From a virus, in the IMG/VR virus record IMGVR_UViG_3300029812_000326, positions 1 through 64,000 of that record: a DNA stretch of 64,000 nucleotides. One strand, given 5' to 3'. This document shows, piece after piece, positions 30,292-54,942 of this stretch; positions within the stretch are counted from its first letter, which is position 1; each line of letters opens with the position of its first letter. The notes below the pieces were generated by a model. That model ran no database searches and was not told the DNA's origin. It was given only the letters and a program-made list of their open reading frames with translations. A program made the position numbers and the translations under genes.

Positions 30292-30292
30292 C

Positions 30293-30562
30293 ATGAGTTG
30301 GAAAACTTGCCACGGTTGCAAAGGAAAAGGATTTGTGATTTTAAAAAATAAAGATGGAAATGAGATCATGAATAAGTGTATAATTTGCAATGGTGCAGGC
30401 ATGATTCTCATTGAACAAACAGATACTTGGACTCCATGGAAATATCCTGATGAAAATGGAGCGCCAGTTTATCCTGATGTTCAATATGGTAGTGCAAATG
30501 ATGCGCTAAGTTGGGGTCCTTGTGATTTATATGGTGCTAAAATATATGTTCAAGTGAATTAA
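30293..30562 (+). CDS. Small DnaJ-type Zn-finger protein
   Basis: CHGCKGKG and CIICNGAG (two CxxCxGxG motifs). Confidence 0.7.
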   Translation: MSWKTCHGCKGKGFVILKNKDGNEIMNKCIICNGAGMILIEQTDTWTPWKYPDENGAPVYPDVQYGSANDALSWGPCDLYGAKIYVQVN

Positions 30563-30574
30563 GGAGGTGAAATT

Positions 30575-30979
30575 ATGAGCGAGATTCAAAATGCAGAACA
30601 AGTAGAATGGATTTATCCTTTTACTGCAGATATGATGAATGGCTGGAAAGTAAAATTTCAAGATGTTTTTTGTCTCAAAATTAATGATAGATTTTATGCT
30701 TATAAGCCCCTGAGCGTAGGAGAACTCAGGGAATTGCAGGTTGCTGAAATGAAAACAATTAGAGAGTTGGAAGCAAATGCCGAGTTGAATGATGATCAAA
30801 AAATGGCTTTTGTTCAAAGCAAATCAATGGAACGAACGGTTGCTGCTTGTGTACTTTGGCCGGAAGATTTTAATTCACAGTTGAATGATGTGCCATGTGG
30901 GGTCGTTGATAGGCTGAATGCGGAAATATTTAAAGTTTCTGGTTATGAAGAAGCTACAACTGAACCAACGAAACTATAG
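30575..30979 (+). CDS. Putative tail assembly chaperone
   Basis: WKVKFQDVF..YAYKPLSVGE..CVLWP..GVVDRL..IFKVSGY; AGGAGG RBS. Confidence 0.6.
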   Translation: MSEIQNAEQVEWIYPFTADMMNGWKVKFQDVFCLKINDRFYAYKPLSVGELRELQVAEMKTIRELEANAELNDDQKMAFVQSKSMERTVAACVLWPEDFNSQLNDVPCGVVDRLNAEIFKVSGYEEATTEPTKL

Positions 30980-31132: not shown

Positions 31133-34100
31133 ATGTATTCTGATCATTTTTACGAACAAAGAGAAAATTTAGATTACCGGGATCGGCAATTACCCAATCC
31201 TTTAAAAACTATAGGAGCTGGAGCGTTTTCGCTATTAGCTTTTATAGTTATTAGGGGAGCTGCGCTTCGAGGTTCTTCCGCTGCAAGTAAATCCTTAGCC
31301 CGAAATTTACCGCGAGTATTAAGATCAGTTGCTGCGCCTAAAACCTGGATAAAATCCTATAAAAATTTAAGGGCCGCCGCAATACGAAGTTCTCGGGCTG
31401 AAGCCAAACAATTTGGAATATTATCTCCAAAAGATATTGGAATAGCTGCTACAGTCAAAGAAGTGCCTTTAATTCAAAGAGCTCGGGCCAAATTTACGAC
31501 TATTTTTGCCAAACAAATTGAAGCTAGGCGACAATATTATTACAGAGATTTAGGTTTACGGGAAAAAGAATTATATGCGGCTTTGAAAGAAGGTTATCAT
31601 CCAAGGGCACTTGATCAAAGACTAAAAGCTTTGAAAACATTTATGAAGCCTGATGGAGCATTTTCTGCTCGCTTCATGGCCGCTGCAGGAAAATGGGGCG
31701 AGCGCTATGCGAAAATGATCCCAGGATTCTACGTTGCAGACCAAGCATTGGGTCTTTTCGAAAAGGAAAGACCCGAACATCCTAAACCTGCTTGGTATAA
31801 CATACCTGGACATGTTGCCGGGATGGTTAGATTTGGAATTGGGTTTGCTCCAATTGATTTAGCATTTAGTGGTGCCAGACACCTATTCAGATATGGCCGA
31901 GCCGTGTCTGCAAGAGGTGCTCAATTAGGAGTTCGTGAATTCCCGCATGTAAGAGAAAAATTCGCAAAAACAGTTGAAACGCTGCATATAAAAGGCGCTC
32001 AATGGCATGCTTCAATTTCTAAACACTGGGCTGCGCGCAGACATGGTGCATGGCCTTCAATCCAAGAACTCAAACGGAGCATTAAGGAACGCAAAGCTCC
32101 GCATTCCATGGATATTGTGCGGTTATATTCTGACATTGTGAAAGATGCCAAAATCCAAAGGAAGCCATATTTTAAGATGGAGCAGCAACTTAACCAAATT
32201 CTTGGCGTCCTTGGTATGAGAAAAGATCCGGAAATGCTTCGCGAGATGTCAAAAGATACTGAAATCAAGAAAGCATTTCATGAAGTTCTTGGAAAATTTG
32301 AAAGACGTCCGAAACAAACATTTATAGAATATGCTCTTAAAACTCCGGAAAGGCCTGCAGATTGGGCTCCACGTAGGCTTTCGACTACGTCATATATTAA
32401 AAGATATGCAAAAGAAGCTCAATGGGATCCAGAAACTACAAATAATGTTTTAAAATTGCTTGGAGGAAAAGAATTATATTATGGTAAGAATATTCTTAGA
32501 AAAGGCAACTTTTCAATGTTCAATGCTAGTTTTACTGCTGGTAAAGTAATAGATGTAATGGGGAAATGGAAGCTGCCTTTTATTAATTGGCATCCTTTCG
32601 AACGAATGATGATTACGGGGATTCCTAAAATAGGAATTCCAAGCAAAGGTTCTGCATTCAGAATTCTTGACGAAAAACAATCTGCATTGATGGCTGAAGC
32701 TGCCATCGACGCGGATTTAAATATTACTAGATCTCCGCAACTCAAAATTGGCGAATATTTTATGAGAATTGGGGATCACGTTTTTAGATTTAGTCCCGAA
32801 AAACTTATTAAGCGAATCAGTGGACATTGGAAAGTCGGTGTTGATACAATTACGGCTGGAGAACGGAGATATTTCCAGGGCATGGTTGAAAGCCAAACCG
32901 ATTATGAACATACTGGCTGGTTGGGTCATTTGCGACAAAAATTTGAATTAGGTCGATCTCCACATTTCATAGGACGGCGACTTAAAGAATATATTATCCA
33001 AGATTTTAATCCCGAAAGTCCTCATGTATTGATGCATGAAAAAGGAAAATTTGCTGGAATGCTCGAACGGCTCCAAGGAGATAAAATTTTTAGTCCCAGA
33101 GAACAAAAAGAATTCATAAATTATTCAAGGGCGATAGGTAGGCATTTATATGGATCAGAACAAAATGCTTTGGAGCTTTTCCATAACAATCAAGGCCTTA
33201 GAGGAAAAGTTCTTGATATCTTAGGTGGAGCAGATGCGAAAAAAGCCAAAAAGATTTTAAATGATGTAAACATTGATAAAGTGATTGACGATTTATCAAT
33301 GTTTGATTATGCATTACCAGAAATATATTCCCAAAGAACTGTTCAAGAAGTTCGCAGAGCTCTTCATGATGTACAAAATCTTGTGGGAGCTGATCGAGAA
33401 TTTTTATTAAGATCAAGAGCAACAGTTGTTGGTCAGGCTAGCAATTTATCTGTACAAGATTATCTTATGGGGCAATATTTTAAAAAGACACTAGAAAATT
33501 ACAGCAAAGTCGGAAAGATAACGGAGGATATGTATGATAAGATTTTTAAATCCATTGACGATGCAATTGTATCCAAATCAGAAAAATCCAAAGCTAAATC
33601 CTTATTTGCCAGCATGAAAATTAACAGGCCAATGTCTGAGCATCTAAATGTATATAGTGATCAAGAGGTAATTAATAGCTTGGATACTGTCGGACATCTT
33701 AAAGATATCATTTCCCCAAATGAAAATTTACTTAGAGATGTGTTTAAATTGGATTATAGGTCCCTCCGAGAATCTGCTAAGATAAATAGATTTATGCGGG
33801 ATACTCTTATCCCTCTCGAAATCCGGGGATATATGGGACCCATAAATGAAATCTGGAGAATTCAAGGTCATGGAGTCCCATCTGCCCCAAAAGATCTTTT
33901 TGGCGCGGCCCCGGGATTTGGAGACATGATTACAAGTAGTTTTAATAAATTCTTTAGAATTTCTGATTCCGCAACCCAAATAAATTATGAACCATATATT
34001 ACCAAACAAAGTATGCTTCTCCATAGATGGGCAATTAGGCCATTCAATATGACATTAGGCTGGATTGGTCTGGATTTACAATATAGGTCAAACGCTGAAT

Positions 34101-37100
34101 TTATGAAAAAATTCGCGATGAAACGCGCTTTGGCTATTCCTGCGGCCATTTATGGTTATCGTGCTATTGACACTTTTCTAACCGTAAATCCACTTTTAAA
34201 CCATACCATCTTTGATGACGGATTGACATCCGCTGGAGCCCAAATAATTGGAAAAGCAAATGTTGCTAGAGCTGAAGTATTTGATACATTGGGAATAACG
34301 GATAAAGCTCAATATTTAGAAGGACTCATGCCAGGATCTATGGAATCCCCCGCTGCAAAATTATTCAGAGCGGCCGCACTTCCGATTTTAGGAAGAAAAT
34401 TTGGTGGGGGACCAGGGCTTATGATTGGATTAGGAGCTTCAGCTGCAACAGGATTTGGTCTTCCTGATTTAACCAGATCTGCAGATGAACTTCGAGACGT
34501 TTATTCCGGAAGAAAGCTCGTACCTCATCGCAGCGGAAGATATTGGGAAACTTGTGTAACCCATTGCCCTATAATGACTTATAATGGAATAAAGTATCCT
34601 GAAGAAATAATTGTTGGAGATAAAATAAAAACATTTGATGGATCTGTTGGTAAAATATTGGCAAAATCCGAAAGAAAATTAATTCCTAATGAAACTGTTT
34701 ATAATATAAAAACCTCATTACCATTCAAAGTAGAACTAACTGGTAATCATGAATTATATATACTACGAAATGATGAATTGCGATGGATACCAACAGAAAA
34801 TATAATGACCACTGATTTATTGGCTATACCATTTCATAAACGGACTTATAAAAGGAAAAATTTATGGCTGCCAAACATATTAGATTGTTCCAAGATTTGG
34901 ACTGAGGGTGAAATATTATATCCAATGCAATTTAAATCTTGTTGGTCAAAGTCTACAAAAAATGGCATCCCCGCATCAATTCCTTTGACGAGAGAATTCG
35001 GGCGTTTAATAGGATATTATCTTGGTGATGGCAATGTTTTTAATAATGTTGGTAAAGCATATGGAATTGAATTTTGTTTTGATAAACACGAAATTTATTA
35101 TGCGGAAGATGTTCAAAATATAATTCATGAAATTTTTGGATTAAAATGTACAATTAGACGGAAAGGTTCTGGATATATAATTGTTCGCTGTTTGAATACA
35201 TTGGTTGGTCAACTATTCGAAACCATTTTTACGAGAAAAAAAATAGTTCCGGAATTTATTTATAATATATCAAATTCAGATTTTCATCGAGGCATTATTG
35301 AAGGACTATGGGAATCGGATGGGTCTGTTGATAAAACTGGAACTAATATTCAATTAAGTTTGGTAAATCCAAATATTATTTTATATGCATTTGAACAATT
35401 GTTGCGATTGGGCATAATTCCAACATTTCGAAAATCAGAAACAAACTATGAATCATTGAAAAAATTAAATCCAATTAAAAAGCAATATGGCGAAACATAT
35501 CATTTATATATTCCATCTAAATATAGAGTCAAGTTTTGGAAAAACATTCATATTAAAAAAGAAAAAAAGAGCCCAAAACCGAAACAATCTAAAATCAAAG
35601 ATACATGTTTAGTCGATGACAAATACTATTATATATCAATTTTAGATAAACAAACAATTCAATATGATGATTTGGTTTATGATTTTATGGTGGATCATAA
35701 TTTTAGTTATTGTGGTCCAACATGCACATATCATAATTCCAAATTGTCTTATTTTGGCGGAAGAATCAGATATTTTGAACCTAGTTGGTATACAAAAATT
35801 GTAAGTCAATATAAATATACGGACGCGGCATTGGGAACCAAGCTAGAATCATTATTATATACAGGCCCCTTAAGCGTATTAACAGATCCCTATCATTTCG
35901 AACGGGAGCATTTTTTCGATCGGCCTTATCCAACAACCGCTGGTCTTTTTTCAGATGTACCCGTAATTGGGTCAATCGCAGACATGACGATTGGAAGACT
36001 TTTAAAGCCTCAAGTTATGATGCATGAAGATGAATTAGAAGCAGCCCAAATGGGATTTGATGTAGAATCGAAAAATAGAATTTTACCCGGATACAATAAA
36101 AATACAATGCCACCTTTGCATGAAGCCCGACCTGGTTATTTTGCGCCAAGGCATACTATCCCATCAGTGAGCATGAAAGGAATGTTAGGAGATTCATTTT
36201 ATAGACTTACCGAAGCTGCTGGACTGCGAGGATTTATGACACAAGCGATATTGGGTCGAGAAGGGATCGGCCAATATGCCCCAGTGTATGATGATGCATC
36301 TGCAATTACTAGTTTCGGACATCAATTTTGGGACGCGGAAATAGGCGGTGGAATAATGTGTTTTGATGGGTCAACATTAATATCAACAACAAATGGATAT
36401 AAAAAAATATGTGATATCAAACCTGAAATGCAAATTGTCAATTTGTCAGGAATATATAAAATTAAAAACAAATTTAAAAGAATTCCAAATGATGATGATG
36501 AAATGTATGAAATATCTGTCAATTCACATCCTAATAAAATTAAAGTCACCGGAAATCATAAAGTACTGGCGCACAGAACCAAGTGCCATTGGAAATCGGA
36601 AAAATCGCATCGTCCAAATAATAATGGAATTTGTCCATATTGTAATAAAAAATTTGTCGAACATTTAAAAGAAATTAGAGTTTGTGATTTACGTCTTGGC
36701 GATTTTCTTATAACTCCGATCCCGATTGGACAAAATGAATACATTATTGATTTTGCAAAATATATGCCAATTTTCACAGATGATTTTGTTTATTCTCAAG
36801 GATCCAAAGAATTTTTTGAAATATATGAACGATTACAATTGGATGGTAATTTACAATATTCAGATTTTCATGATCAAAGATATTATGATGCGAAAAAATC
36901 TACTGGTAATCACAAAAAATGGATACGATATTTGCAATTAAATGAGGATTTATGTTATTTGATTGGATGGTGGATTGCAGAAGGCTGCATACAAAAGAGC
37001 ACTATGCACCTTATAATGCATAAAGATGAAATTGGTGTCGCCCATAAATTGGGTAATATCGCAAAACGATTACTTGGCATTGAAAATTACTATATTCGGT

Positions 37101-40100
37101 CTAATGGTGAAAATTGTATTAGTTTGTATTTTTCGCATCGGCCCTTTGTCAATTTTTTGAAAGCCGAATTTGGCTACGGATCACATAATAAATATATTTC
37201 GCATGACATTAAACAAATGAAAAATGAATATGTTTCCGCATTGTTGAAAGGACTCATGGAAGGAGATGGTTGGGAGAATGAATCCAAGGGTGGGTTTACA
37301 ACTGTTAGCCAACAGTTGTTATTGGATATGATAGAATTGTTTGCCAAATTGGGGAAATTGCCCCATGCATATAGTTATTATGAAATATCAAAAAATGGTG
37401 AGTATCCCCAGGGTGGAAAAAGGAAACCAACGTTGCGATATTATTTAAAATATAACAAAAATACACGTGGGCGATTCCATAATTTCATATTCAATAATAA
37501 ATTATATAAAAAAATTACAAAAATTGAACAAATTGATTGTCCACGGTTTTTGTATGATTTAGAAATTGAAGATGTTCATCAATATCAAGCAAATGGAATT
37601 ATTGCTCACAATAGTGAGGCTTGGAGAAGATTATATCCAAGAGAAAGATTTAAAAATTTGGTAAATCCAATCAGGAATTTGGCTCCAAATTGGTTGCCGG
37701 AAGAATTCAAAACTGGCGATCCATATTGTATTGGATTAGAATCATTGATTGATACAGAAAATGGATTGATAAAAGCAAAAGATGTTTCAGTAAATGATAG
37801 ATTAAAAACTCACGATGGTTCATATCGGCGAATCATGGCGGAAAAAATTAGAAATTTGAAACAAAATGAATTTGCATATGAATTCCGCATTACCGGATTG
37901 CCAGCAATTCCATCCACTATATTTTCTGAAGATCATCCCATTTTGGGATTAAAAAATTATGAAATTAAACAAATTCATAATAGGAAATATGGACAAAAAT
38001 ATTATCGCAAAATGCGTAATGCAAAATGTTACAATTTGAAAAAATTGCCGCATCCAAAATGGATTAAAACAAAAGATTTAAATCCAGGAGATTATGTTGC
38101 TTATCCGATTCCACAATATGAGGAAAAAAATATTATTATTGATATGGCAAAATATACTAAGTTCAAATACACTGATAGATGGATTTATCCAAAACATTGC
38201 CATCCGGAAATATATGAATATTTTTTATCCAATCCCTGCCCATATAATATTCAACAATTGGCTATAGAATTCAATGTTGAAGGAAGCACGTTGGATGCTA
38301 TTCGAGATCATATCAAAGCAAAACGCTACGCAATCCGGTATCCAAGATACATAGAATTTGATGAAGATTTAGCTGCACTTTGCGGATATTATGCTGCAGA
38401 AGGTTGGGCAGGAAACAATGGGGAAATTGGATTTGCGCTACATGTAAAAGAAAAATCTACAATTGTAAAATATTTGGATCATATTTTTAAAAAATTCATA
38501 AATCGAAGTGGAGAAATATATCAATATGAAAGAAATGGAAATGGAATTGACTATCGAATAGGTTCTGGTTATCTTGCTGATTTTTTGGGACAAATCGGGC
38601 ATGAAGCACATGAAAAGCATATTCCCAAAGAATTTTTTCATTTGCATAAATCATATTTAATTCCATTAATTAAAGCATATTTTGAGGGCGATGGTTGTTA
38701 TTTTTCAGATGGAAAACGCGCAAGATTTTCTGCAAAATCAGTTAGTTTACAATTATTATATGATATTAGAAATATATTATTATCCTGGGGCATAATAAGC
38801 AATATAAATTACGATCCTGGCGGCCGGACGTCAAAAATTGGAAATCAAATTATCCATGCTGGGATTTCATATAGTTTAAATATTAATTCAGAAAATGCAT
38901 TAAAATTGGCAAAATTGTTCCAAATTAAATTAAAATGCAATTCTAAAATGCTACATTCGTATTCATTCATCTACGATGGATATTTATGTATGCGCGTTAA
39001 TAATAAGCAAAAAGTTTCATGTGACCAAGTCATAGGATTTGAAATTGAAAACGATTCTTTTTGTGTATTAGGAATTGCAACTCATAATACTCACATCAAA
39101 GGGGGTTTGATTTTGCTTCCATCTCGCGCTCACGAAAAAATGTATCATGTGAAGCATAATTTTCCTATTGATTTAGAATATTTTGGATATGAACCCGGAG
39201 AGGCCGCAGGAAGACTATTGAAATTGATTAGACCGGAAAGAGAAGAAGAATATCATTATTCATTTATTAAAGAATTAATTCAAAAGCAATTATTGATGAA
39301 TAGGCAACTGCTATCCAAAGACGTGCCACTTTTTAATCCTTGGTCAAAGATTGAAGGGCATGTTGATGCTATTATTATGAATCAATCTGGAATTCCAGAA
39401 CTGATGCAAATAAAAGCAACTACTGCTGAAAAACTTGGATTCATGCAGCAGCCAAAACCGGCGCACGTATCTCAGCTCAATTTTGCTATGAGACAAATGA
39501 AGAAAAGATATGGACAAATACTTTATGTTGCGTCAGATAATCCAGAATTAAGTAAATCTTTTTATATAGAATATAATTCGGAACGATTTCGCAATGATAT
39601 GTCAAGAATAAATGAAGCTCGGGAATTGGCATCAGATATGTTACTCAAAGGCATTGGGCAAGTTGGAGAATCCTATTCCTATCCTGATAGATTACAAATT
39701 TTAGCCAATGTATCTCCGTGGGCTCCGGAATATAAAAAAGTTTTGAAGCAATGTAGATTGTTAAAAAGCCATGGATTACTGGATGAAGAAGATCAGGTTA
39801 AAGTAGACGAAGCCCGTAGGCAACATGATGCGATTATGAGGAAATTTGATTTTTATCCTCATCGATTTAGCCATGGTAAATGGCTTACTCCTGACCCAAC
39901 CTATAATTTGATGTCTCAGAATGAAAATATTAAAACTGCTGCAAAATATAATATTATTGAAAGATTAATGGGCGCAGCTTATGAACGATTATTGGAATTT
40001 GATATCCCGGTTGTCCATTCTAAATTGCTTCCATATTATACACCAGAACAAATGTACGAGAGACAAATTGGAGGCAGTTTCAGTGGGCAGTGGTCCAGAC

Positions 40101-41980
40101 CTATCCATGATTATATAAAACCCTGGTGGCATAGTTTTCTCTTATCAACGAATCCAGTTGCATCGGCGATTAAACTTGGATTTGCTGGTGGAGTATCTGC
40201 AGGCCCCCCCGGTGCCGCAGTTGGTTTGGGTGCGGGATTATTATATGGTGCTGGAAGAAGTGTCGCTGGTCCAGGAACTTGGGTTCCGAAAGAGGTCAGA
40301 AAAACCCGAGAAATCGATGAATATTTTGATGCTTTGGAATATATAAAAAATCGTCAATTATATGAACAAACCGGCGACCCGGAATATCTTAAGCGATCAA
40401 GAGAAACAATTTATGGTGTCACTCCTATGAGCACACCAGCCGAATTTTATAGATCGGTTCCGTATATGGAACGTCCATTTTTCTGGTCATTTGCTTCCAT
40501 ACAGGATAAAATTCAACAGGATAGAATTAAACAGCGGATTTCGCCAACCATGAGAAAACTTTTGGAGCACTATTGGTCTGGAGAGAAAAAATTTACTAAT
40601 CCAATGATAGAGGATTATAATCCAAATTTCCGAATGCCAGCGGAGGATTGGATGGGATGGAGAGAGGATATTCCATTGGAGGATATACAACTTAAAACTG
40701 TCAAAATGGAAGGGCTAGATTGTTTCATTCCTACGCAAAAATTATTGACACTAAATGGTCCAATCGAAATACAAAATGTTGAGATGGACACTGAATTAGT
40801 GAATGCCCAGGGAAAGTTGAAAACCCCAATCTGTATATTCAGAAAATTTTATAAAGGCGAAATGATTAAATTAGATTTTAAAGGAACGTATTTTGATTTA
40901 ACCGGAACAAAAACTCACGAATTGGAGATAGCCAAAAAATGCAGAAAATTTGTATTTAAAAAACAAAAACTTCAAGATGTGCGGAAATACAATAGATTAA
41001 AATTATATGGCTATAATTTCCCAGAAACATGCAAAAAATTCGATGATATTAAAATTTCGAAAGATTTAGGATTTATTCTTGGCTGGTTTTTGGCTGAAGG
41101 AAGTTATGTATATAATCCCCTAAATAAACAACCAAAAGGAATTGTATTTTCATTAAATATATTGGAAAATGATATTGCAAAAAAACTTCAAAGTAAAATT
41201 AATAAAATATTTGGTTGTAATGTTTCAATCCACGAACGAACATCTTCAACTTCTGGAAATCCATATTTGCAAGTTACATCATTTTCTGTCAAAATGGCGA
41301 GATTTATATATAAGTTAATCAATCCCAACGCAAAAACGAAATATCTACATCCAATTGTATTCAAATTTCCAATTCCGATTCTCGAGGAAATAATTCGTCA
41401 ATGGTTCAATGGTGATGGATGGAAAACAAACAAAGAGGTTTGTGTTTGTACCGCAAGCGAGAAATTGGCAATTCAGGGGTGGTATATAATGCGATCCTGT
41501 GGGATGGAAGCCGCGATACAAAAAGCAAAGCAATATGGATACAAACCAGGATTTAATTACAGAATCAGGATTGGTCGTAAAAAGGACAAGGAAATATTTT
41601 ATTCCAATTGGAAATATGTTCCATGGACCACATTGACGGTATCAAAAATATATCATGTTAATTATGAAGGCGATATTTATGATGTAGAAATGCCGAATAA
41701 TCATTATTATACAACAATTTGTGGAACTGTTCATAATTCCCATGATTTTGGATTGGGATGGAAACCTCAAGAATTAAGAATGCATAATTCTCCATATGCG
41801 GTCAAACCGATAGACATTTCCAGTCCTTCTGGAATATCCTATGGTCACGAAAATTTAGAATCGGCTGATGTAAAAAATTTTGTTCAAAACATTTTGCAAA
41901 GATATGGTATAACAAATACAAATGTAGCTGTTACAAAATCTCAGGGCAGTGGCGCGACCATATCATTAAATATTAATTAA
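31133..41980 (+). CDS. Giant virion protein in the tape-measure position; four inteins and a Cas4/RecB-like domain (2009 aa after predicted splicing)
   Basis: Follows tail chaperones; Gly-zipper hydrophobic segments; four C...HN intein blocks; EGHVD..QIK..SQLNF motif. Confidence 0.7.
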   Translation: MYSDHFYEQRENLDYRDRQLPNPLKTIGAGAFSLLAFIVIRGAALRGSSAASKSLARNLPRVLRSVAAPKTWIKSYKNLRAAAIRSSRAEAKQFGILSPKDIGIAATVKEVPLIQRARAKFTTIFAKQIEARRQYYYRDLGLREKELYAALKEGYHPRALDQRLKALKTFMKPDGAFSARFMAAAGKWGERYAKMIPGFYVADQALGLFEKERPEHPKPAWYNIPGHVAGMVRFGIGFAPIDLAFSGARHLFRYGRAVSARGAQLGVREFPHVREKFAKTVETLHIKGAQWHASISKHWAARRHGAWPSIQELKRSIKERKAPHSMDIVRLYSDIVKDAKIQRKPYFKMEQQLNQILGVLGMRKDPEMLREMSKDTEIKKAFHEVLGKFERRPKQTFIEYALKTPERPADWAPRRLSTTSYIKRYAKEAQWDPETTNNVLKLLGGKELYYGKNILRKGNFSMFNASFTAGKVIDVMGKWKLPFINWHPFERMMITGIPKIGIPSKGSAFRILDEKQSALMAEAAIDADLNITRSPQLKIGEYFMRIGDHVFRFSPEKLIKRISGHWKVGVDTITAGERRYFQGMVESQTDYEHTGWLGHLRQKFELGRSPHFIGRRLKEYIIQDFNPESPHVLMHEKGKFAGMLERLQGDKIFSPREQKEFINYSRAIGRHLYGSEQNALELFHNNQGLRGKVLDILGGADAKKAKKILNDVNIDKVIDDLSMFDYALPEIYSQRTVQEVRRALHDVQNLVGADREFLLRSRATVVGQASNLSVQDYLMGQYFKKTLENYSKVGKITEDMYDKIFKSIDDAIVSKSEKSKAKSLFASMKINRPMSEHLNVYSDQEVINSLDTVGHLKDIISPNENLLRDVFKLDYRSLRESAKINRFMRDTLIPLEIRGYMGPINEIWRIQGHGVPSAPKDLFGAAPGFGDMITSSFNKFFRISDSATQINYEPYITKQSMLLHRWAIRPFNMTLGWIGLDLQYRSNAEFMKKFAMKRALAIPAAIYGYRAIDTFLTVNPLLNHTIFDDGLTSAGAQIIGKANVARAEVFDTLGITDKAQYLEGLMPGSMESPAAKLFRAAALPILGRKFGGGPGLMIGLGASAATGFGLPDLTRSADELRDVYSGRKLVPHRSGRYWETCVTHCPIMTYNGIKYPEEIIVGDKIKTFDGSVGKILAKSERKLIPNETVYNIKTSLPFKVELTGNHELYILRNDELRWIPTENIMTTDLLAIPFHKRTYKRKNLWLPNILDCSKIWTEGEILYPMQFKSCWSKSTKNGIPASIPLTREFGRLIGYYLGDGNVFNNVGKAYGIEFCFDKHEIYYAEDVQNIIHEIFGLKCTIRRKGSGYIIVRCLNTLVGQLFETIFTRKKIVPEFIYNISNSDFHRGIIEGLWESDGSVDKTGTNIQLSLVNPNIILYAFEQLLRLGIIPTFRKSETNYESLKKLNPIKKQYGETYHLYIPSKYRVKFWKNIHIKKEKKSPKPKQSKIKDTCLVDDKYYYISILDKQTIQYDDLVYDFMVDHNFSYCGPTCTYHNSKLSYFGGRIRYFEPSWYTKIVSQYKYTDAALGTKLESLLYTGPLSVLTDPYHFEREHFFDRPYPTTAGLFSDVPVIGSIADMTIGRLLKPQVMMHEDELEAAQMGFDVESKNRILPGYNKNTMPPLHEARPGYFAPRHTIPSVSMKGMLGDSFYRLTEAAGLRGFMTQAILGREGIGQYAPVYDDASAITSFGHQFWDAEIGGGIMCFDGSTLISTTNGYKKICDIKPEMQIVNLSGIYKIKNKFKRIPNDDDEMYEISVNSHPNKIKVTGNHKVLAHRTKCHWKSEKSHRPNNNGICPYCNKKFVEHLKEIRVCDLRLGDFLITPIPIGQNEYIIDFAKYMPIFTDDFVYSQGSKEFFEIYERLQLDGNLQYSDFHDQRYYDAKKSTGNHKKWIRYLQLNEDLCYLIGWWIAEGCIQKSTMHLIMHKDEIGVAHKLGNIAKRLLGIENYYIRSNGENCISLYFSHRPFVNFLKAEFGYGSHNKYISHDIKQMKNEYVSALLKGLMEGDGWENESKGGFTTVSQQLLLDMIELFAKLGKLPHAYSYYEISKNGEYPQGGKRKPTLRYYLKYNKNTRGRFHNFIFNNKLYKKITKIEQIDCPRFLYDLEIEDVHQYQANGIIAHNSEAWRRLYPRERFKNLVNPIRNLAPNWLPEEFKTGDPYCIGLESLIDTENGLIKAKDVSVNDRLKTHDGSYRRIMAEKIRNLKQNEFAYEFRITGLPAIPSTIFSEDHPILGLKNYEIKQIHNRKYGQKYYRKMRNAKCYNLKKLPHPKWIKTKDLNPGDYVAYPIPQYEEKNIIIDMAKYTKFKYTDRWIYPKHCHPEIYEYFLSNPCPYNIQQLAIEFNVEGSTLDAIRDHIKAKRYAIRYPRYIEFDEDLAALCGYYAAEGWAGNNGEIGFALHVKEKSTIVKYLDHIFKKFINRSGEIYQYERNGNGIDYRIGSGYLADFLGQIGHEAHEKHIPKEFFHLHKSYLIPLIKAYFEGDGCYFSDGKRARFSAKSVSLQLLYDIRNILLSWGIISNINYDPGGRTSKIGNQIIHAGISYSLNINSENALKLAKLFQIKLKCNSKMLHSYSFIYDGYLCMRVNNKQKVSCDQVIGFEIENDSFCVLGIATHNTHIKGGLILLPSRAHEKMYHVKHNFPIDLEYFGYEPGEAAGRLLKLIRPEREEEYHYSFIKELIQKQLLMNRQLLSKDVPLFNPWSKIEGHVDAIIMNQSGIPELMQIKATTAEKLGFMQQPKPAHVSQLNFAMRQMKKRYGQILYVASDNPELSKSFYIEYNSERFRNDMSRINEARELASDMLLKGIGQVGESYSYPDRLQILANVSPWAPEYKKVLKQCRLLKSHGLLDEEDQVKVDEARRQHDAIMRKFDFYPHRFSHGKWLTPDPTYNLMSQNENIKTAAKYNIIERLMGAAYERLLEFDIPVVHSKLLPYYTPEQMYERQIGGSFSGQWSRPIHDYIKPWWHSFLLSTNPVASAIKLGFAGGVSAGPPGAAVGLGAGLLYGAGRSVAGPGTWVPKEVRKTREIDEYFDALEYIKNRQLYEQTGDPEYLKRSRETIYGVTPMSTPAEFYRSVPYMERPFFWSFASIQDKIQQDRIKQRISPTMRKLLEHYWSGEKKFTNPMIEDYNPNFRMPAEDWMGWREDIPLEDIQLKTVKMEGLDCFIPTQKLLTLNGPIEIQNVEMDTELVNAQGKLKTPICIFRKFYKGEMIKLDFKGTYFDLTGTKTHELEIAKKCRKFVFKKQKLQDVRKYNRLKLYGYNFPETCKKFDDIKISKDLGFILGWFLAEGSYVYNPLNKQPKGIVFSLNILENDIAKKLQSKINKIFGCNVSIHERTSSTSGNPYLQVTSFSVKMARFIYKLINPNAKTKYLHPIVFKFPIPILEEIIRQWFNGDGWKTNKEVCVCTASEKLAIQGWYIMRSCGMEAAIQKAKQYGYKPGFNYRIRIGRKKDKEIFYSNWKYVPWTTLTVSKIYHVNYEGDIYDVEMPNNHYYTTICGTVHNSHDFGLGWKPQELRMHNSPYAVKPIDISSPSGISYGHENLESADVKNFVQNILQRYGITNTNVAVTKSQGSGATISLNIN
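34553..35737 (+). mobile_element. Intein 1 with LAGLIDADG endonuclease (395 aa)
   Basis: WET|CVTH start, LTGNH block B, LIGYYLGDG and EGLWESDG, TYHN|S end. Confidence 0.88.
36359..37612 (+). mobile_element. Intein 2 with LAGLIDADG endonuclease (418 aa)
   Basis: GIM|CFDG start, VTGNH, LIGWWIAEG and KGLMEGDG, IAHN|S end. Confidence 0.9.
37727..39088 (+). mobile_element. Intein 3 with LAGLIDADG endonuclease (454 aa)
   Basis: DPY|CIGL start, SEDHP, LCGYYAAEG and KAYFEGDG, ATHN|T end. Confidence 0.88.
40721..41737 (+). mobile_element. Intein 4 with LAGLIDADG endonuclease (339 aa)
   Basis: GLD|CFIP start, TKTHE, LGWFLAEG and WFNGDG, TVHN|S end. Confidence 0.88.
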
Positions 41981-41982
41981 TC

Positions 41983-44900: not shown

Positions 44901-47900
44901 TATACGTCTTCAAACTGCCAGTTGTCCTGAAAAATATGGGCATCCAATGAAAATTTTTGCATATCCATATAAAGGAATGTTAACTCCAATAGAAGGATTA
45001 AGATCGATTACTTGGGTTGATGCCGTTCTTCGTAAAGATCTTGCAAAACGCGGCAGAATGTCAGTCATGTTAGGCCAAATTCAAAGATTGACTAGGAATT
45101 TCCAAACCATTCATTCGAAATTAACTCCATCCCAAACATTTCAATTTTTTGAAACAGTTAAAATTTTTGTGAATAAAATAAATTCAATGGGTGGTATTAA
45201 ATTAGATTGGCAAGTCAATAAAGGTAAACTTCAATTTATAGACGAAATAACGGGAAAAGAATGGCAAAAATTGGATCTCGGAAAAATTGAAAAAAATTGG
45301 TTACAATTTTCCGAAGGCGAATGGGTTAGATTTATGAAAGAATATTCCCAAAAAATCCGACATATGATGATTTCATTTGGGATTAAATATTCCAGACATG
45401 ATCCTCGCTTGCCTTATTGGACTCAAGGTCAACTTGAATCGATGCTATCAACTGAATGGGGTAGACGATATCCTAAAAAACTAGCATTTGCTGATTTGTC
45501 CCGAGCTGAACAAAATGTATTTCGGGAAAAAATAGAAGTAGAAATGCACGAACAATTATCAAAAAGTGAATTCTCCAAATTTTTTACAAAAGCAGAATTA
45601 GAACGTTGGAAATCCGGAACTTTAATGGAAGGCCATCTTTCTTTGATTCAACTATTCGGCGGTTCTTGGGGAATATTAGAAGTTACTCCGGCATCTAGAG
45701 CATATGAAGCCGGAGAATTATATGCTAAAGGTGCCGATATAAAAATCCCCAGCTTGGATGAATTAGTTGTGTCCGGACCAATAGCTCAAAGAATTGCTCG
45801 CACATTCACTGGCGAACAGCGCGATATGATGAATTATATGTCAAACATCCAGCCCCTTTTGAGATATGGAATCTTGCCTGAATCTCATTATCCAATTATA
45901 AAAGCCTCAGAAATAAATCTTGATCCTATGACAACTCATTTAGGATTTAAAGAGGAAATTGGAATCATAGAAGATAAATCTTTCAGAATTAAATGCGTTG
46001 AAACTGGGGAAATTTTTAATTCTTTGGAAGAAGTTCCAGACCGCTATTTGAAGCAATATACATTAAGACCCATGGGTATGAATGCATATATGCACCCAAA
46101 AACCTTGGAATCGATGTATGGACAACAACCAACTATAGTTGAATTCAATATAGGGAAAAAGAAGGTTTACCTTCCCAGACCGGCATTATCATTTATCAGA
46201 GGTGCGCCCGCCAGAGTCACGAAAAGCGGAGATCCTTATACCATCATTGGAAAAGAGATTCAAACATTTAAAAATCTATTGATTGCGGCATCAGATTACG
46301 AGAAAATTAAAGGGGACGAAGCAAAAGCCGCATTTGAAAGAAAGTTCTTTTCACGGGCTGAAGACTATAAAAATATGATATTAACGGATAAAAATGCATA
46401 TATAAAAATGACCAAACCAACGATTCCTGGAGTTCAAGGAAAGATTTCCATGGCATTTGCCCCCGGAATGGCTAAAGCGTTGGGATTGCCGCAAGATATG
46501 TTTAGCCATATAACTACAGGATTTGGGATACAGGGAGTATCTGTAAAGTCGATGGGCGAAGAATATTTTAATAAAGCCATGGATGTCCATCAAATAAAGG
46601 AAGGATCGAATGTTGGAAAATATAGAGGCGCCACAGGAATGGTTTATCCGAATAAAATGGCGTTTAGGGAAGCTCTTATTGAAGGTGAAGAATTACTTGC
46701 GGGAACTATTATCAGAACCCCCGCAGAAAACCGATTCGCATTTTTTGATACATTGATCACTGTTAAAAAAGATCAAGCAGCTGGAATGCGCCTCCAACTT
46801 AGAGAAGCATTAGCAACCCACTGTGATTATGATGGGGATATAGGGCGCCTAGTATTTGCCGAGTTTTCTCCCCAGGAGCAGGAGCAAGCTTTGAAAGATC
46901 TCATAAATAAGCAACACGTTGATAGAAAAGCACATGCAACATTAGCTGAAAGGATCAAAAAGCTTCAAGCAAATGTGCTTGAATATGAAACCGGCAAAGA
47001 CGTCGCAACCAAAAAACAGATTGTCAAGGAAATTGAACAAATTCAAGAACTTGAAAAAACAATGAACGTTAATGTCTATGGTCAAGGTATTTGGGTAAGG
47101 GAAGCTAAACCAAAAGCGATTCCAAAAGAAATTAAATTAGGAATTGGCGATGAAATGAGATTTCGAAAAATGAATTTGCATCAGTTTATGAAAGAATTGC
47201 CATCTATTGATCTTCCCGAAAGATTGATCAAATTACCGGGTGAAGAATTGGAACAACATCTTTCCAATATGCTTACGAAAACTGCTACAGCCTACTCGTA
47301 TAGAAAAGCAATGACCATGAGATCAGCAACTAAGCTATTTGGTGGAAAATTAACTGAACAATATTTGGACTTATATAATGAATTGGCCGGAAAAGTTACT
47401 GCATTCAAAAAAGTTCCATATGAAAAAGCTGAGCAAATAACTAGAGCTCTATTGGAACCAGAAGCTGCAGAATCGAAAAAAATTATGGGAGAAGTATTAA
47501 ATAGGGATGCGGAAGAACTTTGGCCACAATTTAAAGAATGGCATTCTGCACTAAATCGTGCCATGATGAGAAAGGAAGTTAATGAATTAATCAGTTCTGG
47601 AATGAAACGCGCCCCTATTACGGGTGGACAGTTGGCATTATGGGGTCCAAGTGCAGAAATCCCTGCTGCAGGAAAGACTCGCGCAATTTTAGACTTTTGG
47701 GGTAAAGAAAAGTTTCTTGATAGCTTTAAACGTCAAGGGAAAAAAGGCGGCATTGCAATTGCGTTGGCCGCGCTTGTCGCTCCGATTTTCCTGTCGCACG
47801 ATAATATATATGATAAAAAAGGATATCCAATAATTCCAACGAATTTCAACGTTGCTCAGCCAATATTCCCAGCCCCTATTCACATAATACCAAACGATCC

Positions 47901-48030
47901 ACCATCGCATCCTATAAGAACATTTAAACCTCAGATTATTGATCCTTTGCTTATTAATTTTGGTTCTGACAACAACTTAACAACAAGAAGGAATAGTGGC
48001 CAATATCCAAATGAATTGAGAAATTACTAG
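41983..48030 (+). CDS. Putative single-chain two-barrel RNA polymerase fused to a DEDDh exonuclease (candidate virion RNAP)
   Basis: IDFET (43501), SFD (43807), HEASID (44119-44136); ENAGLI and MKIFAYPYKG beta-like motifs; IRTP (46714) and HCDYDGD (46819-46839). Confidence 0.7.
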   Translation: MPIIYDQEENQFRDRFGYLFPTVLLGGGFMAWKKYYGSPQLGRKFSPRAFIGFVKDLSSQDYLRKYLTRPDKPELPLQHRLVETAVEYEKSKSVIEFLTDADLKTVREIGKALPTPIKVEEIEFKRQVIRQFNPVTYDLVRNNLEKTQEVFNELLENVEDSKHLQSILKQQLERYRFRKSHLLIYSKFSEIISPEMLKSEAEQTVLMRQLWDTQKKQTQEARRLAQILQRESPETIVNLKIPKVLERVDPAILIDERRARLQPAGKTINDSGIKLSYTGYKSFLQTLRRARVDSKAIAAIETIDPILKQHLNELAHTKARITYALQDNAFNLRAVIKLSIQVKEEGKRETINLKIPLTRGGRLRVNGTRWIPQRYKGIKPLIPEIERIESDIYESMIRNLNKRFKNEVWHRIMAGDARGGERAINTLIKEPIDERLIMEVGCPVHDFIEQNVIQDAKLGYLSPTRGFKNEDERRAVSDRFKKMQKLKLLLMEGDGKLKLPNRYAFIDFETFGTKTNYLPHQVTIGIIENGAVVDWYTGKVDPRSINANYAFPEIDLKLSFKGKTREQVMKEFDEMGQPISKIRKELEDFLRKNAKGGKLPVAAWSASFDVDRVMGQQFLGAKAYLGETWDPMDLQKAIDPDVQASVSLRSVGQSRKIFIPTSSKKDLTLNKKVIESFKKDHKLMAILKDKDPGFYSKLAKAISEKQIRNLVMHEASIDVLMANKVFQDIAKDINLHSSVVMRDLNAMLLAYHRALTRSINPIDVNHWTTRALGHNFPSLSPAQILQGKFTNFDIRDLAPLTNLGLDPTRPFYQQWNSARLITTHVPDLVTKTYKKIASRRGEIFKSMDILTIFNPLTAENAGLIDFQAADEMAIKMVSKLIRIPHTGNLKLIPELKEAFEQIKSAKTPKDREIVLSKLRQKMAKAYQKGSRFKEWLPGYTLLGEAEGFTFDTSTPLMSAIENIEYNNENREIAIRLQTASCPEKYGHPMKIFAYPYKGMLTPIEGLRSITWVDAVLRKDLAKRGRMSVMLGQIQRLTRNFQTIHSKLTPSQTFQFFETVKIFVNKINSMGGIKLDWQVNKGKLQFIDEITGKEWQKLDLGKIEKNWLQFSEGEWVRFMKEYSQKIRHMMISFGIKYSRHDPRLPYWTQGQLESMLSTEWGRRYPKKLAFADLSRAEQNVFREKIEVEMHEQLSKSEFSKFFTKAELERWKSGTLMEGHLSLIQLFGGSWGILEVTPASRAYEAGELYAKGADIKIPSLDELVVSGPIAQRIARTFTGEQRDMMNYMSNIQPLLRYGILPESHYPIIKASEINLDPMTTHLGFKEEIGIIEDKSFRIKCVETGEIFNSLEEVPDRYLKQYTLRPMGMNAYMHPKTLESMYGQQPTIVEFNIGKKKVYLPRPALSFIRGAPARVTKSGDPYTIIGKEIQTFKNLLIAASDYEKIKGDEAKAAFERKFFSRAEDYKNMILTDKNAYIKMTKPTIPGVQGKISMAFAPGMAKALGLPQDMFSHITTGFGIQGVSVKSMGEEYFNKAMDVHQIKEGSNVGKYRGATGMVYPNKMAFREALIEGEELLAGTIIRTPAENRFAFFDTLITVKKDQAAGMRLQLREALATHCDYDGDIGRLVFAEFSPQEQEQALKDLINKQHVDRKAHATLAERIKKLQANVLEYETGKDVATKKQIVKEIEQIQELEKTMNVNVYGQGIWVREAKPKAIPKEIKLGIGDEMRFRKMNLHQFMKELPSIDLPERLIKLPGEELEQHLSNMLTKTATAYSYRKAMTMRSATKLFGGKLTEQYLDLYNELAGKVTAFKKVPYEKAEQITRALLEPEAAESKKIMGEVLNRDAEELWPQFKEWHSALNRAMMRKEVNELISSGMKRAPITGGQLALWGPSAEIPAAGKTRAILDFWGKEKFLDSFKRQGKKGGIAIALAALVAPIFLSHDNIYDKKGYPIIPTNFNVAQPIFPAPIHIIPNDPPSHPIRTFKPQIIDPLLINFGSDNNLTTRRNSGQYPNELRNY

Positions 48031-48032
48031 AA

Positions 48033-48044
48033 TTGAACTATAAC
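48033..48044 (+). promoter_or_regulatory. Motif TTGAACTATAAC, copy 4
   Basis: Exact 12-mer, 2 nt after the stop of 41983-48030. Confidence 0.55.
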
Positions 48045-48100
48045 AATATTGAGATGATACATAGAAAAACAAAAGGAAAAGAAATCATAGGAGAATAAAT

Positions 48101-48298
48101 ATTTTTTATCGTATACAAATTTCGGGGAAATTTACTAAACCCATTAATATTCAAGGACTTGAAAACAACCTCGAATCCTTATTTAAAAATCTAACTGGAG
48201 AAAATGTAACCATTTTTAATAACAGTTCTCCAACTCCTAAAAGAGATTGGAAAAATCCATCTTCCGTCGGGATACAATTGAATCCTTTAAGGAAATAA
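48101..48298 (+). CDS. Unannotated 65-aa ORF with probable ATT start
   Basis: AGGAG, 7 nt, ATT; open to TAA 48296-48298 (IFYRIQISGKFTKPINIQGLENNLESLF...); fills the spacer. Confidence 0.45.
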   Translation: MFYRIQISGKFTKPINIQGLENNLESLFKNLTGENVTIFNNSSPTPKRDWKNPSSVGIQLNPLRK

Positions 48299-48301
48299 AT
48301 T

Positions 48302-48805
48302 ATGCCATATAAAGATCCAAAAAAACGAAAAGAATATCAGTAGGAATATTTACAAAAGAATAAAGAAAAATTAAAAATTCGCAGGCAGAAATATTATCAA
48401 GAAAATAAAGAAAAAATTAAAAAATATCTTCAAGAACATAAGGAAAGTGTTAAAAAACTTAAATTGAAATATATACGAAATCATCCGCATCGTGTTTGGG
48501 CAACGCATACCTTTAATGGTCATAAACACCGAAGATTTATAATTAATATTTCTATCGACGAACTTGAAGAAATTGCTAAAAATATAACTCATTGCCCTAT
48601 ATGTAATAGTGAATTCAAATGGAAACAAGAAAAACAATGTGATAATACACCATCTTTGGATCGGATTAATAATGGAAATAATATTGATAAAAATTCAGTT
48701 TGGATCATATGCAGTAAATGTAATCGAACAAAATCGAATAGGACTCTTAAAGAATTTATAAATTACTGTGAATTGGTTTCGAAAAAGGACTTTAATATCG
48801 AATAA
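48302..48805 (+). pseudogene. HNH endonuclease with in-frame TAG at codon 14
   Basis: MPYKDPKKRKEYQ*EYLQK.. in frame with the 48464 ORF; core paralogous to 4-531 (IDELE..HCP.C..PSLDRINN..C..CN..KSNRT..EF). Confidence 0.75.
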
Positions 48806-48807
48806 TT

Positions 48808-54800: not shown

Positions 54801-54942
54801 TCATTATATGGATAAAATTACTCGAATAAGTGGAACGTTTAAACAACTGAGTGCAAGCCTAATTGGATTAAGAGATAAGCCAGAAGGTACACAAATGGCA
54901 TTACCAATTCTTGGATATAAAAACGAAAATTTAATTTTTTAA
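48808..54942 (+). CDS. Large baseplate hub-like protein with N-terminal M15 (LAS) peptidase
   Basis: ITSGRR..SYHLTGHAADI..HLHI; IMIKMGY..VVFQGSI..FIAQGWG hub-like segment; C-terminal Gly-rich TM; upstream of gp25-like and J-like genes. Confidence 0.7.
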   Translation: MKVYNPIEWNIGVHGGYDNPDDARNIVQPLFDLLNYLNRWCQDQGMNHIIITSGRREAKYNASIGGSPTSYHLTGHAADIAIIGRYNRWEQTMIYNWLHTVFADQLAQVLYHGTGGNYHLHIGIRKGSEGMGPLLETESKSEGIIEEKKPGTNSCNIMNDNIMGYNETIATQIPLDIYKTSYELLQDVTEEEKIDPLIALAQKPGSFKFGACWLTVPPTSIAFTEQNNIVGIPTLRTKGNVYWRTGINSINMDLEFLFPGLIQINDELRHIIAQIKRCPFLPFENYYLHSLIFPELKSAKPQPDIPYEFTTEEKTQHEKQTGTQDRLQQQQWRLKNKKIMDIVKSGDEKSLKEFIEKGKKYGYFIQDAESQEDRRERTEQLEKLYEWMGKYRHIDVDDTSGLSYRDQQMVAAIRSISITSVPGFPKTLQMNCSCDIFNYFPYTSAFSFIENETKNEVPVFNISKSALFGKYYKGMLTRNNAQEFKDAFESTTKLEAIGSDERMDYLHLRYIYSKESKNRAILAQRAILEYIQAIKDFGESYEAAPAAELYQNLFIFLTHPNFGGWQNLFDAPGNVIDAIKELGKDAVIAGKSIIAVVKFYQDSFGEYLLGINANNEIYVIGNRKGREYFLPLKDAIKNPEYRTRLLFYIKDYSVKIRSLQYNQRDLKLGDQNSQIVGISASMETKLVPMNILAFTKPTFQHLGNSEWVVTLTVETSDPNLIRDFRMMTERLNQTALSQIAVLPEIRDYADLSAQIVEGPFFKLLGIENIIPGNFRYSTVEGKPGIFHIQIDFVQSDLELKTYEALQAPAYFPSDFIKSFIKLIPVLLLENISSKLEADWNNYHIIHKYKIGMQLLHQTLENYPKWSKFLFYLCKPIPKSLCSESIPVYKFILNDISSELIAKKQQKDLFKWDWKDILMYAGAYFTARLGAGPGPVGDVRAHSGAMAAKFTFTNLLNTTIFAAYKGAVGRQLKATLNEAINRENVPSELKIDSTENGRKLLELIRENQKYLHIRNSTYPDLELPIIADSPDFWFFREPLYNDNIREFADVIVSGHEDIVLKLAKLNSMNKQGKATTQLAKLDQIAKEAKIKEVLVSEELNKNLLSYLRDANEDLQFNIERSKDLKENAHLMMETKRNKSQEYSGRADESTLRSRLSRIKHDMEYYNDSLKIINLIELKNMDFQTTGDLLDIALVLAKNWGICTPRDAQLEKQMLQDAMNLDENKTLRLGRAFPTFKLYFIEKDKEEWLLFDDFYGYGAVKEIQIRKIRKSPIHTAVVTLSNITNVLQDIHAPKNENISKSETAEEQPNIDTMLLQEGCEIMIKMGYENDSNKLKVVFQGSIVSIQPGPELQFIAQGWGAELGQPIQDFSVGKWSTIRDFGDIATAILNKVSGLRHFGTTYNLAEMFDDLPNIQYRSDRRETYVGRLKNWSLQGLGLNPLLDHRDDNVWLPYHSPPSIWSLAHIIEGKGFAFDWRVYNKTAWDALDEVLKYMPGYIMKILPYNEDNLQSARCTLYIGPRDGYYMATDDSEVVNRTSEHDKYQERRNRWYMRVKGIKAPTKQELIIKLRNFNIDYDSNTSIIYKEFINQNIICQNDECSLMKASPFNPTVVQWSGQLYTMEILFGGNEICHKINKEHWKRQYFNVLNGSGMTRAIMIYDVYDKLHFKDFERVYGKASLFERATEGVERFTYGKDDNPKRLAGKRGWKRACKTHFIDSYHHIIENNMKASRENMYNKVHLIYPKGEPQMAANETQLKTGDLSEFEMLADDNIKPDMIRTHKLFFTNIDVDRTRNFIDSIGNVLKGLGQTIGLNDRGNFPDIPPYAIVANTILAEDLKDMYDGEIIILLDPNIDIHDVVYIYDDVNEIYGPVGVKEIYHYFSMAHGAYTVIVPDLMSYPSNLEQTVELGYASALYAALIKIVLGGILIGGGGALLAGNLLGPWTGVGVAGFSLAFTYKLASSIGSGGINKLMGREGSEFVPIWRKGAPFLAGMDGYRKDDLIVHYMDKITRISGTFKQLSASLIGLRDKPEGTQMALPILGYKNENLIF

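Follow-up and report, generated by a model that had tools for sequence, protein, structure and literature searches.

Thermus phage P23-45 carries in its virion a two-barrel RNA polymerase (RNAP) that is fused to its tape measure protein, gp96, as proven by structure and assays (PMC10770324). This polymerase was spotted through an Asp motif, DxDGD, and gp96 is proposed to transcribe the first phage genes at the DNA entry pore (PMC10770324). It is the only published tape-measure-associated two-barrel RNAP that our literature search found. Gp66 of phi14:2, a crAss-like phage, and gp50 of phage N4 are also large polymerases that are delivered by the virion and carry additional fused regions. Gp66 is a single-chain two-barrel enzyme that was first noticed through its Asp motif, and the N4 virion RNAP is T7-like; both phages are short-tailed, and the capsid is the presumed starting point of their cargo. 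A survey of jumbo phages reported no RNAP of their own except in phiKZ-like phages and in two YonO-type cases, 0305phi8-36 and c-st (PMC7824862). Here we describe three consecutive giant genes, encoding P1, P2, and P3, in positions 1 to 64,000 (the window, 64 kb) of the 108.9-kb IMG/VR virus record IMGVR_UViG_3300029812_000326. The three genes form a module that is shared by hundreds of uncultured phages. The middle gene occupies the tape measure slot of Bacillus phage 0305phi8-36 and bears the catalytic signature of cellular-type RNAPs, and therefore these phages probably inject a polymerase of their own through the tail. Our preferred explanation, to which we assign a probability of roughly 0.6, is that the three proteins are a trio of the tail core, that P1 and P2 are ejected through the tail, and that P2 is a diverged two-barrel polymerase with a role like that of gp96.

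The three open reading frames (ORFs) of the trio are the following.

31133..41980, + strand: P1, a giant virion protein like gp145 of 0305phi8-36 (phmmer, gp145 family)
41983..48030, + strand: P2, 2015 residues, in the tape measure slot; its start codon lies 2 nucleotides after the P1 stop codon
48808..54942, + strand: P3, a giant baseplate hub like gp147 of 0305phi8-36 (Pfam, PHROG, tblastn, phmmer)

The original prediction, made from the DNA letters alone, was that three consecutive proteins of about 2,000 residues form an injected entry and transcription apparatus. The coordinates, sizes, and inteins were confirmed: P1 is a 3615-residue precursor that matures to 2009 residues, P2 has 2015 residues, and P3 has 2044. 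The domains that had been read from the sequence were found as well, namely, Gly-zipper segments and a nuclease-like domain in P1, exonuclease motifs in P2, and a cell wall peptidase with a C-terminal Gly-rich transmembrane (TM) segment in P3. Membrane-grade hydrophobic segments are present in all three proteins (P1, residues 22 to 45; P2, 1919 to 1942; P3, 1903 to 1936). Synteny of the trio was seen in all of the relatives inspected: in the close relatives L004 and L005, in the distant relatives L011 and L012, which keep the order where P2 is only ~30% identical, in 0305phi8-36, in Acinetobacter phage ME3, and in most of the 80 IMG/VR loci described below. The genomes of 0305phi8-36 and ME3 present the same series as the window, with the sheath, tube paralogues, chaperones, and three giant genes followed by gpV/W/J-like baseplate genes, and hydrophobic N- and C-terminal architecture is common to both phages and the window. 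According to the record of 0305phi8-36, mass spectrometry detected gp145, gp146, and gp147 in the virion; the naming of gp146 as tape measure rested mostly on its length, and gp147 has a T4 gp27-like hub domain (PMC2147016). We read the trio as part of the tail core, with two giant proteins encoded between the chaperones and the hub and then the giant hub itself.

P2 runs from a Gly-rich hydrophobic N terminus through an exonuclease domain and a polymerase-like core to a TM segment near the C terminus, after which comes a Pro-rich tail. Its features are the following; DPBB stands for double-psi beta-barrel.

43480..44148, + strand: DEDDh 3'-5' exonuclease domain (Pfam Rv2179c-like, 4.6e-5; PHROG 192)
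44935..45087, + strand: motifs of a putative beta-like barrel (DPBB-B), K990, K997-G, and K1022-R-x-R1025
46417..46872, + strand: signature of a beta'-like barrel (DPBB-A), with IPGVQGK (residues 1481 to 1487), IIRTPAE (1576 to 1582), and H-x-DYDGD (1613 to 1619)
47737..47808, + strand: C-terminal TM segment (residues 1919 to 1942), followed by a conserved Pro-rich tail

P2 has few relatives. Apart from fragments, two exhaustive searches recovered only four homologues, two of them close and two distant but full-length, and a fifth lineage of the family was recovered from a metagenome scan. A tblastn search of P2 against 50,697 phage records found no match. Among five sequences at 26 to 30% identity, residues H1613, D1615, D1617, G1618, D1619, R1578, P1580, K990, K997, and R1025 are invariant, and the densest invariant clusters of the family alignment are the Exo I motif, a GxDPxRP block, IPGVQGK, and H-x-D-x-DGD. 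R1578-x-P1580 precedes the loop by 37 residues; the corresponding spacing in Escherichia coli beta' (NRAPTLH...NADFDGD) is 35. In composition-matched shuffles of P2, DxDGD arose in 1%, and DxDGD together with [RK]xP arose in 0.13%.

YonO/RdRP-like RNAPs (PF05183, related to RNA-dependent RNA polymerases [RdRPs] and including gp99 of 0305phi8-36) have the single-chain two-barrel layout that is proposed for P2 and carry (K/R)...KG, IP.V.G, R.P, and DxDGD in the same order, but the spacing between the barrels is ~275 residues in the gp99 family versus ~620 between the putative barrels of P2. Windows of the P2 family aligned by hhalign to the gp99 family placed the IP.V.G, FR..L, and DxDGD blocks colinearly, with a nonsignificant E value of 0.07. 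In a protein atlas, residues 1470 to 1700 of P2 retrieved RdRP PF05183 as the sole named family, at a subthreshold score of 0.81 that is a lead only; whole P2 returned no match there. Smith-Waterman and hidden Markov model comparisons of family windows with E. coli beta and beta' hit the correct sites with P2 itself (P0002) and partly with P0006, and did not with P0007, the latter two being other members of the P2 family. The putative second barrel would correspond to beta: K990, K997-G, and R1025 resemble K1065, K1073, and R1106 of E. coli beta (region 1065 to 1110), inconsistently across members.

The signature recurs far beyond the P2 family. A gp145-like C-terminal domain is encoded at no fewer than 411 IMG/VR loci, the longest of whose contigs measures 244 kb, and 80 of these loci were fetched for a survey. 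A giant ORF of 700 to 3300 residues directly follows the P1 homologue in 73 of the 80 loci; a hub homologue lies downstream in 52, with the second large ORF encoding it in 47 of these, and the locus end truncates most of the other loci. The middle ORFs form more than 30 clusters that phmmer could not connect. Forty-one of the middle ORFs contain DxDGD, or RxP followed by DxDxD, at 0.67 to 0.80 of their length, and a profile of the motif windows added at least 13 further ORFs with this signature, including the variants DKDAD, DYDAD, and DFDFD. In total, at least 54 of 78 middle ORFs contain DxDGD or DxDxD, at 0.58 to 0.80 of their length. RxP lies mostly 25 to 50 (or ~80) residues upstream of the loop, and it accompanies DxDGD in most of the clusters that carry the motif, versus ~13% of the DxDGD occurrences in shuffles. 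One lineage (the middle ORFs of L052, L055, L070, and L080, at residues ~1390 to 1440) has GADFDDD or GADYDDD where others have DxDGD, so that its variant of the catalytic loop includes one more acidic residue, the fourth.

Profiles of the motif region were compared with 177,635 sequences from the PDB. All 60 of the matches listed were largest subunits of RNAPs, with best E values of 1.7e-4 for Rpb1, 2.4e-4 for phiKZ gp55, and 3e-4 upward for beta'; gamma, Rpo1N, and AR9 subunits were also among them, and some of the alignments spanned RxP to the loop. Gp96 was not among the 60 matches listed, and no direct comparison with gp96 was made. The consensus of 25 full-length middle proteins in a global alignment consists of a Gly-rich N terminus, GK...G, G..G...R.P....G...D.D.D, and a C-terminal hydrophobic segment with a Pro-rich tail. 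On this shared consensus, the middle proteins form a single, very diverged family with a tape-measure-like architecture. The C-terminal TM segment and Pro-rich tail are likewise found in gp146 and ME3_36, the middle proteins of 0305phi8-36 and ME3, neither of which P2 matches by phmmer; hhalign of the P2 family against each was not significant. In ME3_36, REP and DHDQD are separated by 41 residues, with the loop at residue 1217 of 1603 (positions 12280 to 12594 of L003; residues 1147 to 1251 of ME3_36), and no PF05183-type RNAP was found in the ME3 genome. ME3 is therefore a convenient experimental model. 0305phi8-36 differs, since gp146 has no DxDxD loop and the phage has instead a separate RdRP-like RNAP, gp99. 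PF05183 was not found in the window's record, which is ~53% complete, or in the partial contigs that hold L004 and L005.

A number of results weigh against a polymerase in P2. Some of the profile windows had been chosen by regular expression, and an upstream profile lacking the catalytic block no longer found beta'. On the strength of this control, the similarity is to be read as an RNAP-specific catalytic-loop signature with the correct spacing, not as a full-domain match. The P2 family alone showed no RNAP similarity in Pfam, PDB sequences, PHROGs, or hhalign: neither P0002 nor the family profile, A1, matched an RNAP in PDB sequences, and its hhalign comparison with the gp99/RdRP family fell short of significance (whole-length probability, 0.25%; windows, E value of 0.07). 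The DPBB-B motif was untraceable across the lineages of middle proteins. An AlphaFold model of P2 residues 850 to 1920, built from eight sequences, had a mean predicted local distance difference test score (pLDDT) of 49.7, falling to ~25 at DYDGD, and a predicted template modeling score (pTM) of 0.25, and Foldseek found no fold match for it in the PDB. The record is only ~53% complete by CheckV, so another RNAP may exist. It also encodes a 341-residue sigma-70 region 2 protein (positions 101627 to 102652, minus strand, of G000, the whole 108.9-kb source record; positions 3627 to 4652 of L008), which implies that host RNAP is used for part of the program. Finally, exonucleases of the proofreading type typically accompany DNA polymerases and not RNA polymerases.

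The fit of P2 to a tape measure brings in a first alternative. Its gene lies between the chaperones and the hub, its ends are hydrophobic, and its C terminus is conserved; the position and ends of P1 fit as well. P2, and perhaps also P1, is thus possibly the tail tape measure, judging from position and hydrophobic ends. The earlier statement that no ordinary tape measure is visible was misleading, because P2 occupies the tape measure slot of 0305phi8-36 and P1 directly follows the presumed chaperones. P2 might then be purely structural, a tape measure or tail lumen protein in which DxDGD binds a metal or a partner, and the trio would be an oversized tape measure plus hub. This would suit the annotation of the slot in 0305phi8-36, where gp146 does without the motif, as well as the hydrophobic ends and conserved C-terminal tail, which are typical of tape measures. 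It would also suit the failure of AlphaFold and Foldseek to support a fold and the one domain that Pfam scans of the 25 middle proteins detected, an SLT transglycosylase domain, common in tape measures, in a single protein. We nevertheless regard it as unlikely. The motif and RxP recur at the same relative position in dozens of lineages that otherwise look unrelated, the motif profile retrieved only RNAP largest subunits among the 60 matches listed, and the conserved, fused DEDDh exonuclease points to nucleic acid chemistry. Moreover, P23-45 shows that a tape measure and an RNAP can coexist in one protein.

In the exonuclease of the P2 family, residues D507, E509, F608, H713, and D718 are invariant, and the Exo I DxE, Exo II (F608-D/E), and Exo III H-x4-D motifs are present; the Pfam match, seen in four of the five members, scored 23.6 bits in P2, just below the cutoff of 27 bits. 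The domain is restricted to this small family and was not detected in the 25 other middle proteins, which makes it an add-on rather than the core function.

Two-barrel cores are also found in archaeal PolD and in RdRPs (PMC7824862, PMC10770324). P2 could accordingly have two barrels and not be a transcriptase: a DNA polymerase or primase-like enzyme that has a 3'-5' proofreading exonuclease of its own, or an RNA-dependent enzyme, might, for example, repair, fill in, or prime the incoming DNA end. Proofreading DNA polymerases have this arrangement of an N-terminal DEDDh exonuclease ahead of the polymerase core, an exonuclease likewise accompanies the two-barrel core of PolD, and the subthreshold atlas neighbor (0.81) was an RdRP family, PF05183. 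Set against this are the confinement of the exonuclease to the P2 family as an add-on, the family B DNA polymerase that the phage already owns, the best Pfam match of the exonuclease, which is to an exoribonuclease family, and the proven precedent in this gene position, which is an RNAP. We consider a non-transcriptase quite improbable.

Returning to the polymerase of our preferred explanation, we infer from the conserved motifs that P2 adopts a two-barrel fold, and it would make RNA rather than DNA. By analogy, P2 may work like gp96 and is a candidate for the same type. Each is a giant protein encoded in the tape measure position, each has membrane segments and a DxDGD loop, and both are otherwise unrecognizable as RNAPs. 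They differ in that P23-45 is a siphovirus whose gp96 has an N-terminal RNAP (DFDGD at residue 779 of 5002), whereas the loop of P2 lies ~80% along the protein of a contractile-tailed phage. Gp96 has neither an exonuclease nor a gp145-like partner. Its activity and structure are proven, whereas those of P2 are proposed.

P1 belongs to the gp145 family by sequence similarity. It contains an N-terminal TM segment (residues 22 to 45), Gly-zipper segments, a conserved C-terminal half, and the following inserted or embedded elements.

34553..35737, + strand: intein 1 (P1 residues 1141 to 1535), within the conserved GRWW...GG block
36359..37612, + strand: intein 2 (residues 1743 to 2160), within the conserved LGG.GG...E..RR block
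37727..39088, + strand: intein 3 (residues 2199 to 2652), after the conserved GDPY
39161..39655, + strand: PD-(D/E)xK nuclease-like domain with a Cas4/lambda exonuclease fold (PHROG 1706/2506, Foldseek and VIA matches)
40721..41737, + strand: intein 4 (residues 3197 to 3535)

P1 has 28 collected homologues. With phmmer, it matched gp145 at an E value of 8e-74, colinearly over extein residues 1109 to 2008, and ME3_35 at 7e-24. The inteins have the attributes of LAGLIDADG inteins: Cys1, a C-terminal His-Asn, a Ser or Thr at position +1, an endonuclease domain, and an intein-free allele. A related contig encodes an intein-free, 2019-residue homologue to which the spliced, 2009-residue P1 aligns without gaps, and all eight splice junctions are fixed by this alignment. 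In the window, every intein interrupts one of the family's most conserved blocks. Inteins are frequent in the gp145-like gene, a hot spot for them, with four inteins in the window (34553 to 41737), none in L005, and a single one, at a fifth site, in L004 (2787 to 9998); the distant P1 homologues P0012 to P0015, of 2403 to 3102 residues, contain intein Pfam domains too. A further LAGLIDADG intein interrupts the family B DNA polymerase (G000 positions 102819 to 106016, minus strand; L008 positions 4819 to 8016), and thus the phage holds at least five inteins.

The C-terminal half of P1 has no Pfam or PDB sequence match. An AlphaFold model of this half without inteins, built from a 20-sequence alignment, reached a pLDDT of 66.9 and a pTM of 0.62. 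The only part of P1 with structural relatives in the PDB is the PD-(D/E)xK nuclease, of the Cas4/lambda exonuclease type; the other conserved blocks had no solved-structure match in whole-model searches. In BFVD, the structural neighbors of P1 are the C-terminal halves of other uncharacterized giant viral proteins, with E values down to 3e-25, and one bears the name [quoted passage not shown]

That name raises the alternative that P1 and P2 are polyvalent counterdefense cargo (PMC7824862 discusses polyvalent proteins), in which injected nucleases destroy host nucleic acids or signaling nucleotides and the polymerase motif is secondary. The nucleases do come and go, as is typical of conflict modules: 9 of 20 members of the P1 family have that of P1, and the exonuclease is confined to the family of P2. 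Yet it is the conserved cores of P1 and the middle proteins that are present in all lineages, with the nucleases optional, and in the clade of the window a Gln replaces the Asp or Glu of relatives in the nuclease motif (QIK). Such add-ons are compatible with an injected polymerase rather than opposed to it. We give this alternative little credence.

P3 is, by its sequence and its position ahead of the gpV/W/J genes, a giant gp27-like hub with a wall hydrolase. It comprises an M15 peptidase (residues 25 to 131) that scores above the Pfam cutoff, a region of hub homology (residues ~1189 to 1545), and the Gly-rich TM segment at residues 1903 to 1936. P3 matches PHROG 20474 at 8.6e-59, and tblastn and phmmer relate it to gp147 (1.5e-26) and ME3_37 (7e-16), both annotated as baseplate hubs.

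The surrounding genes set the limits of the tail module and identify the kind of phage. All large ORFs within 1 to 59 kb of the window are on the plus strand.

9106..10974, + strand: large terminase
13170..14594, + strand: portal
17542..18915, + strand: major capsid protein
23754..26471, + strand: tail sheath, 905 residues (PHROG tail sheath, 1.8e-55)
23754..28116, + strand: sheath and two paralogous tube-like proteins (phrog_9206 paralogues), the upstream limit of the module
29674..30979, + strand: small ORFs of 205, 89, and 134 residues between the tube paralogues and P1, presumed from position only to be tail assembly chaperones
48464..48805, + strand: free-standing HNH endonuclease ORF, 113 residues, between P2 and P3
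56136..57380, + strand: Baseplate_J-like wedge protein (Pfam Baseplate_J, 5e-21), the downstream limit of the module

The two tube-like paralogues (26493 to 27152 and 27229 to 28116) match phrog_9206, which is labeled "major head protein"; this label looks wrong, given their position and a comparison with gp141, a tube paralogue of 0305phi8-36. The small ORFs at 29674..30979 had no PHROG match and share their position with gp143 and gp144, the "tail chaperonin" of 0305phi8-36. L004 and L005 lack the HNH ORF at the corresponding site, and a second free-standing ORF of this sort, HNH/endonuclease VII-like, lies at 59623 to 60369 within the tail and baseplate module. In L005, which is 84% identical, a 752-residue ORF (7730 to 9988) sits between P1 and P2; its N terminus presumably resembles a B12-dependent ribonucleotide reductase, as judged by eye. 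The remainder of the 108.9-kb record encodes the intein-containing family B DNA polymerase, a primase-helicase, glycosyltransferases, and the sigma-70-like factor. IMG/VR labels the whole record a "provirus," which may be an artifact, since the part seen holds lytic-style jumbo phage replication genes and no integrase.

The phage is a jumbo-type myovirus of the lineage of Bacillus phage 0305phi8-36 and Acinetobacter phage ME3. Within this lineage, the window stands apart through the four inteins of its P1 and the DEDDh exonuclease of its P2. The sheath, tube, and Baseplate_J proteins mark a large contractile-tailed phage, and membership among crAss-like or N4-like phages was ruled out by them. 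An entry and transcription apparatus, as first predicted, keeps the support of synteny, a wall-degrading hub, virion homologues, and the RNAP signature. What falls away is the analogy to the cargo proteins of crAss-like and N4-like phages, as the proper analogue for a sheathed myovirus is gp96 of P23-45 (PMC10770324). In contrast to the short-tailed phi14:2 and N4, the P2 gene lies in a contractile-tail module, and P2 has tape-measure-like ends. The N4 virion RNAP, moreover, is not two-barrel.

In the mechanism that we propose, the P3 hub would sit at the tail tip, where its M15 domain would cut peptidoglycan cross-links and open the wall. P1 and P2 would be carried in or at the tail lumen, exit the tube ahead of the DNA upon contraction of the sheath, and insert in or at the inner (cytoplasmic) membrane. 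They look like ejected-type proteins in that, like proteins of the tape measure type, they begin with a hydrophobic segment, contain additional segments of the membrane or Gly-zipper kind, and end in conserved tails. Virion carriage, membrane insertion, and coupling to DNA entry in this phage are inferred; the tethered polymerase and the pulling in of DNA by transcription that were first suggested are conceivable parts of the mechanism. The core of P2 would bind Mg through the H-x-D-x-DGD loop, with R-x-P upstream as in beta', and might transcribe the leading genes at the entry site, as proposed for gp96 (PMC10770324). The sigma-like factor of the phage would redirect host RNAP later. In the P2 lineage, the exonuclease may trim or proofread 3' ends, or it may signal a DNA-making enzyme.

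Relative to gp96, the new elements are a contractile-tailed clade, a C-terminal core, an obligatory gp145-like partner together with a giant hub, and a lineage-specific exonuclease fusion. Rather tentatively, we extend our explanation to a whole, largely uncultured clade of jumbo contractile-tailed phages, with hundreds of IMG/VR contigs and the cultured ME3: its members might deliver a two-barrel polymerase with a gp145-like partner and a lytic hub as a "transcribing entry complex," and the exonuclease gained in the lineage of the window would make its enzyme the first two-barrel polymerase fused to a domain of the proofreading type.

Such a complex would assign roles to three virion proteins that rank among the largest "hypothetical" ones known from phage genomes and would raise the question of how a 2,000-residue enzyme passes through the tail tube. 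The exonuclease fusion and the four P1 inteins in conserved blocks mark functionally critical sites for mutagenesis, and cultured relatives, ME3 and the 0305phi8-36-like Bacillus phages, make the idea directly testable. If true, it would explain how transcription starts in jumbo phages that are said to lack an RNAP. Should the middle protein be an active polymerase, a tail-injected polymerase would be an old and widespread strategy of large myoviruses and not the curiosity of one Thermus siphovirus.

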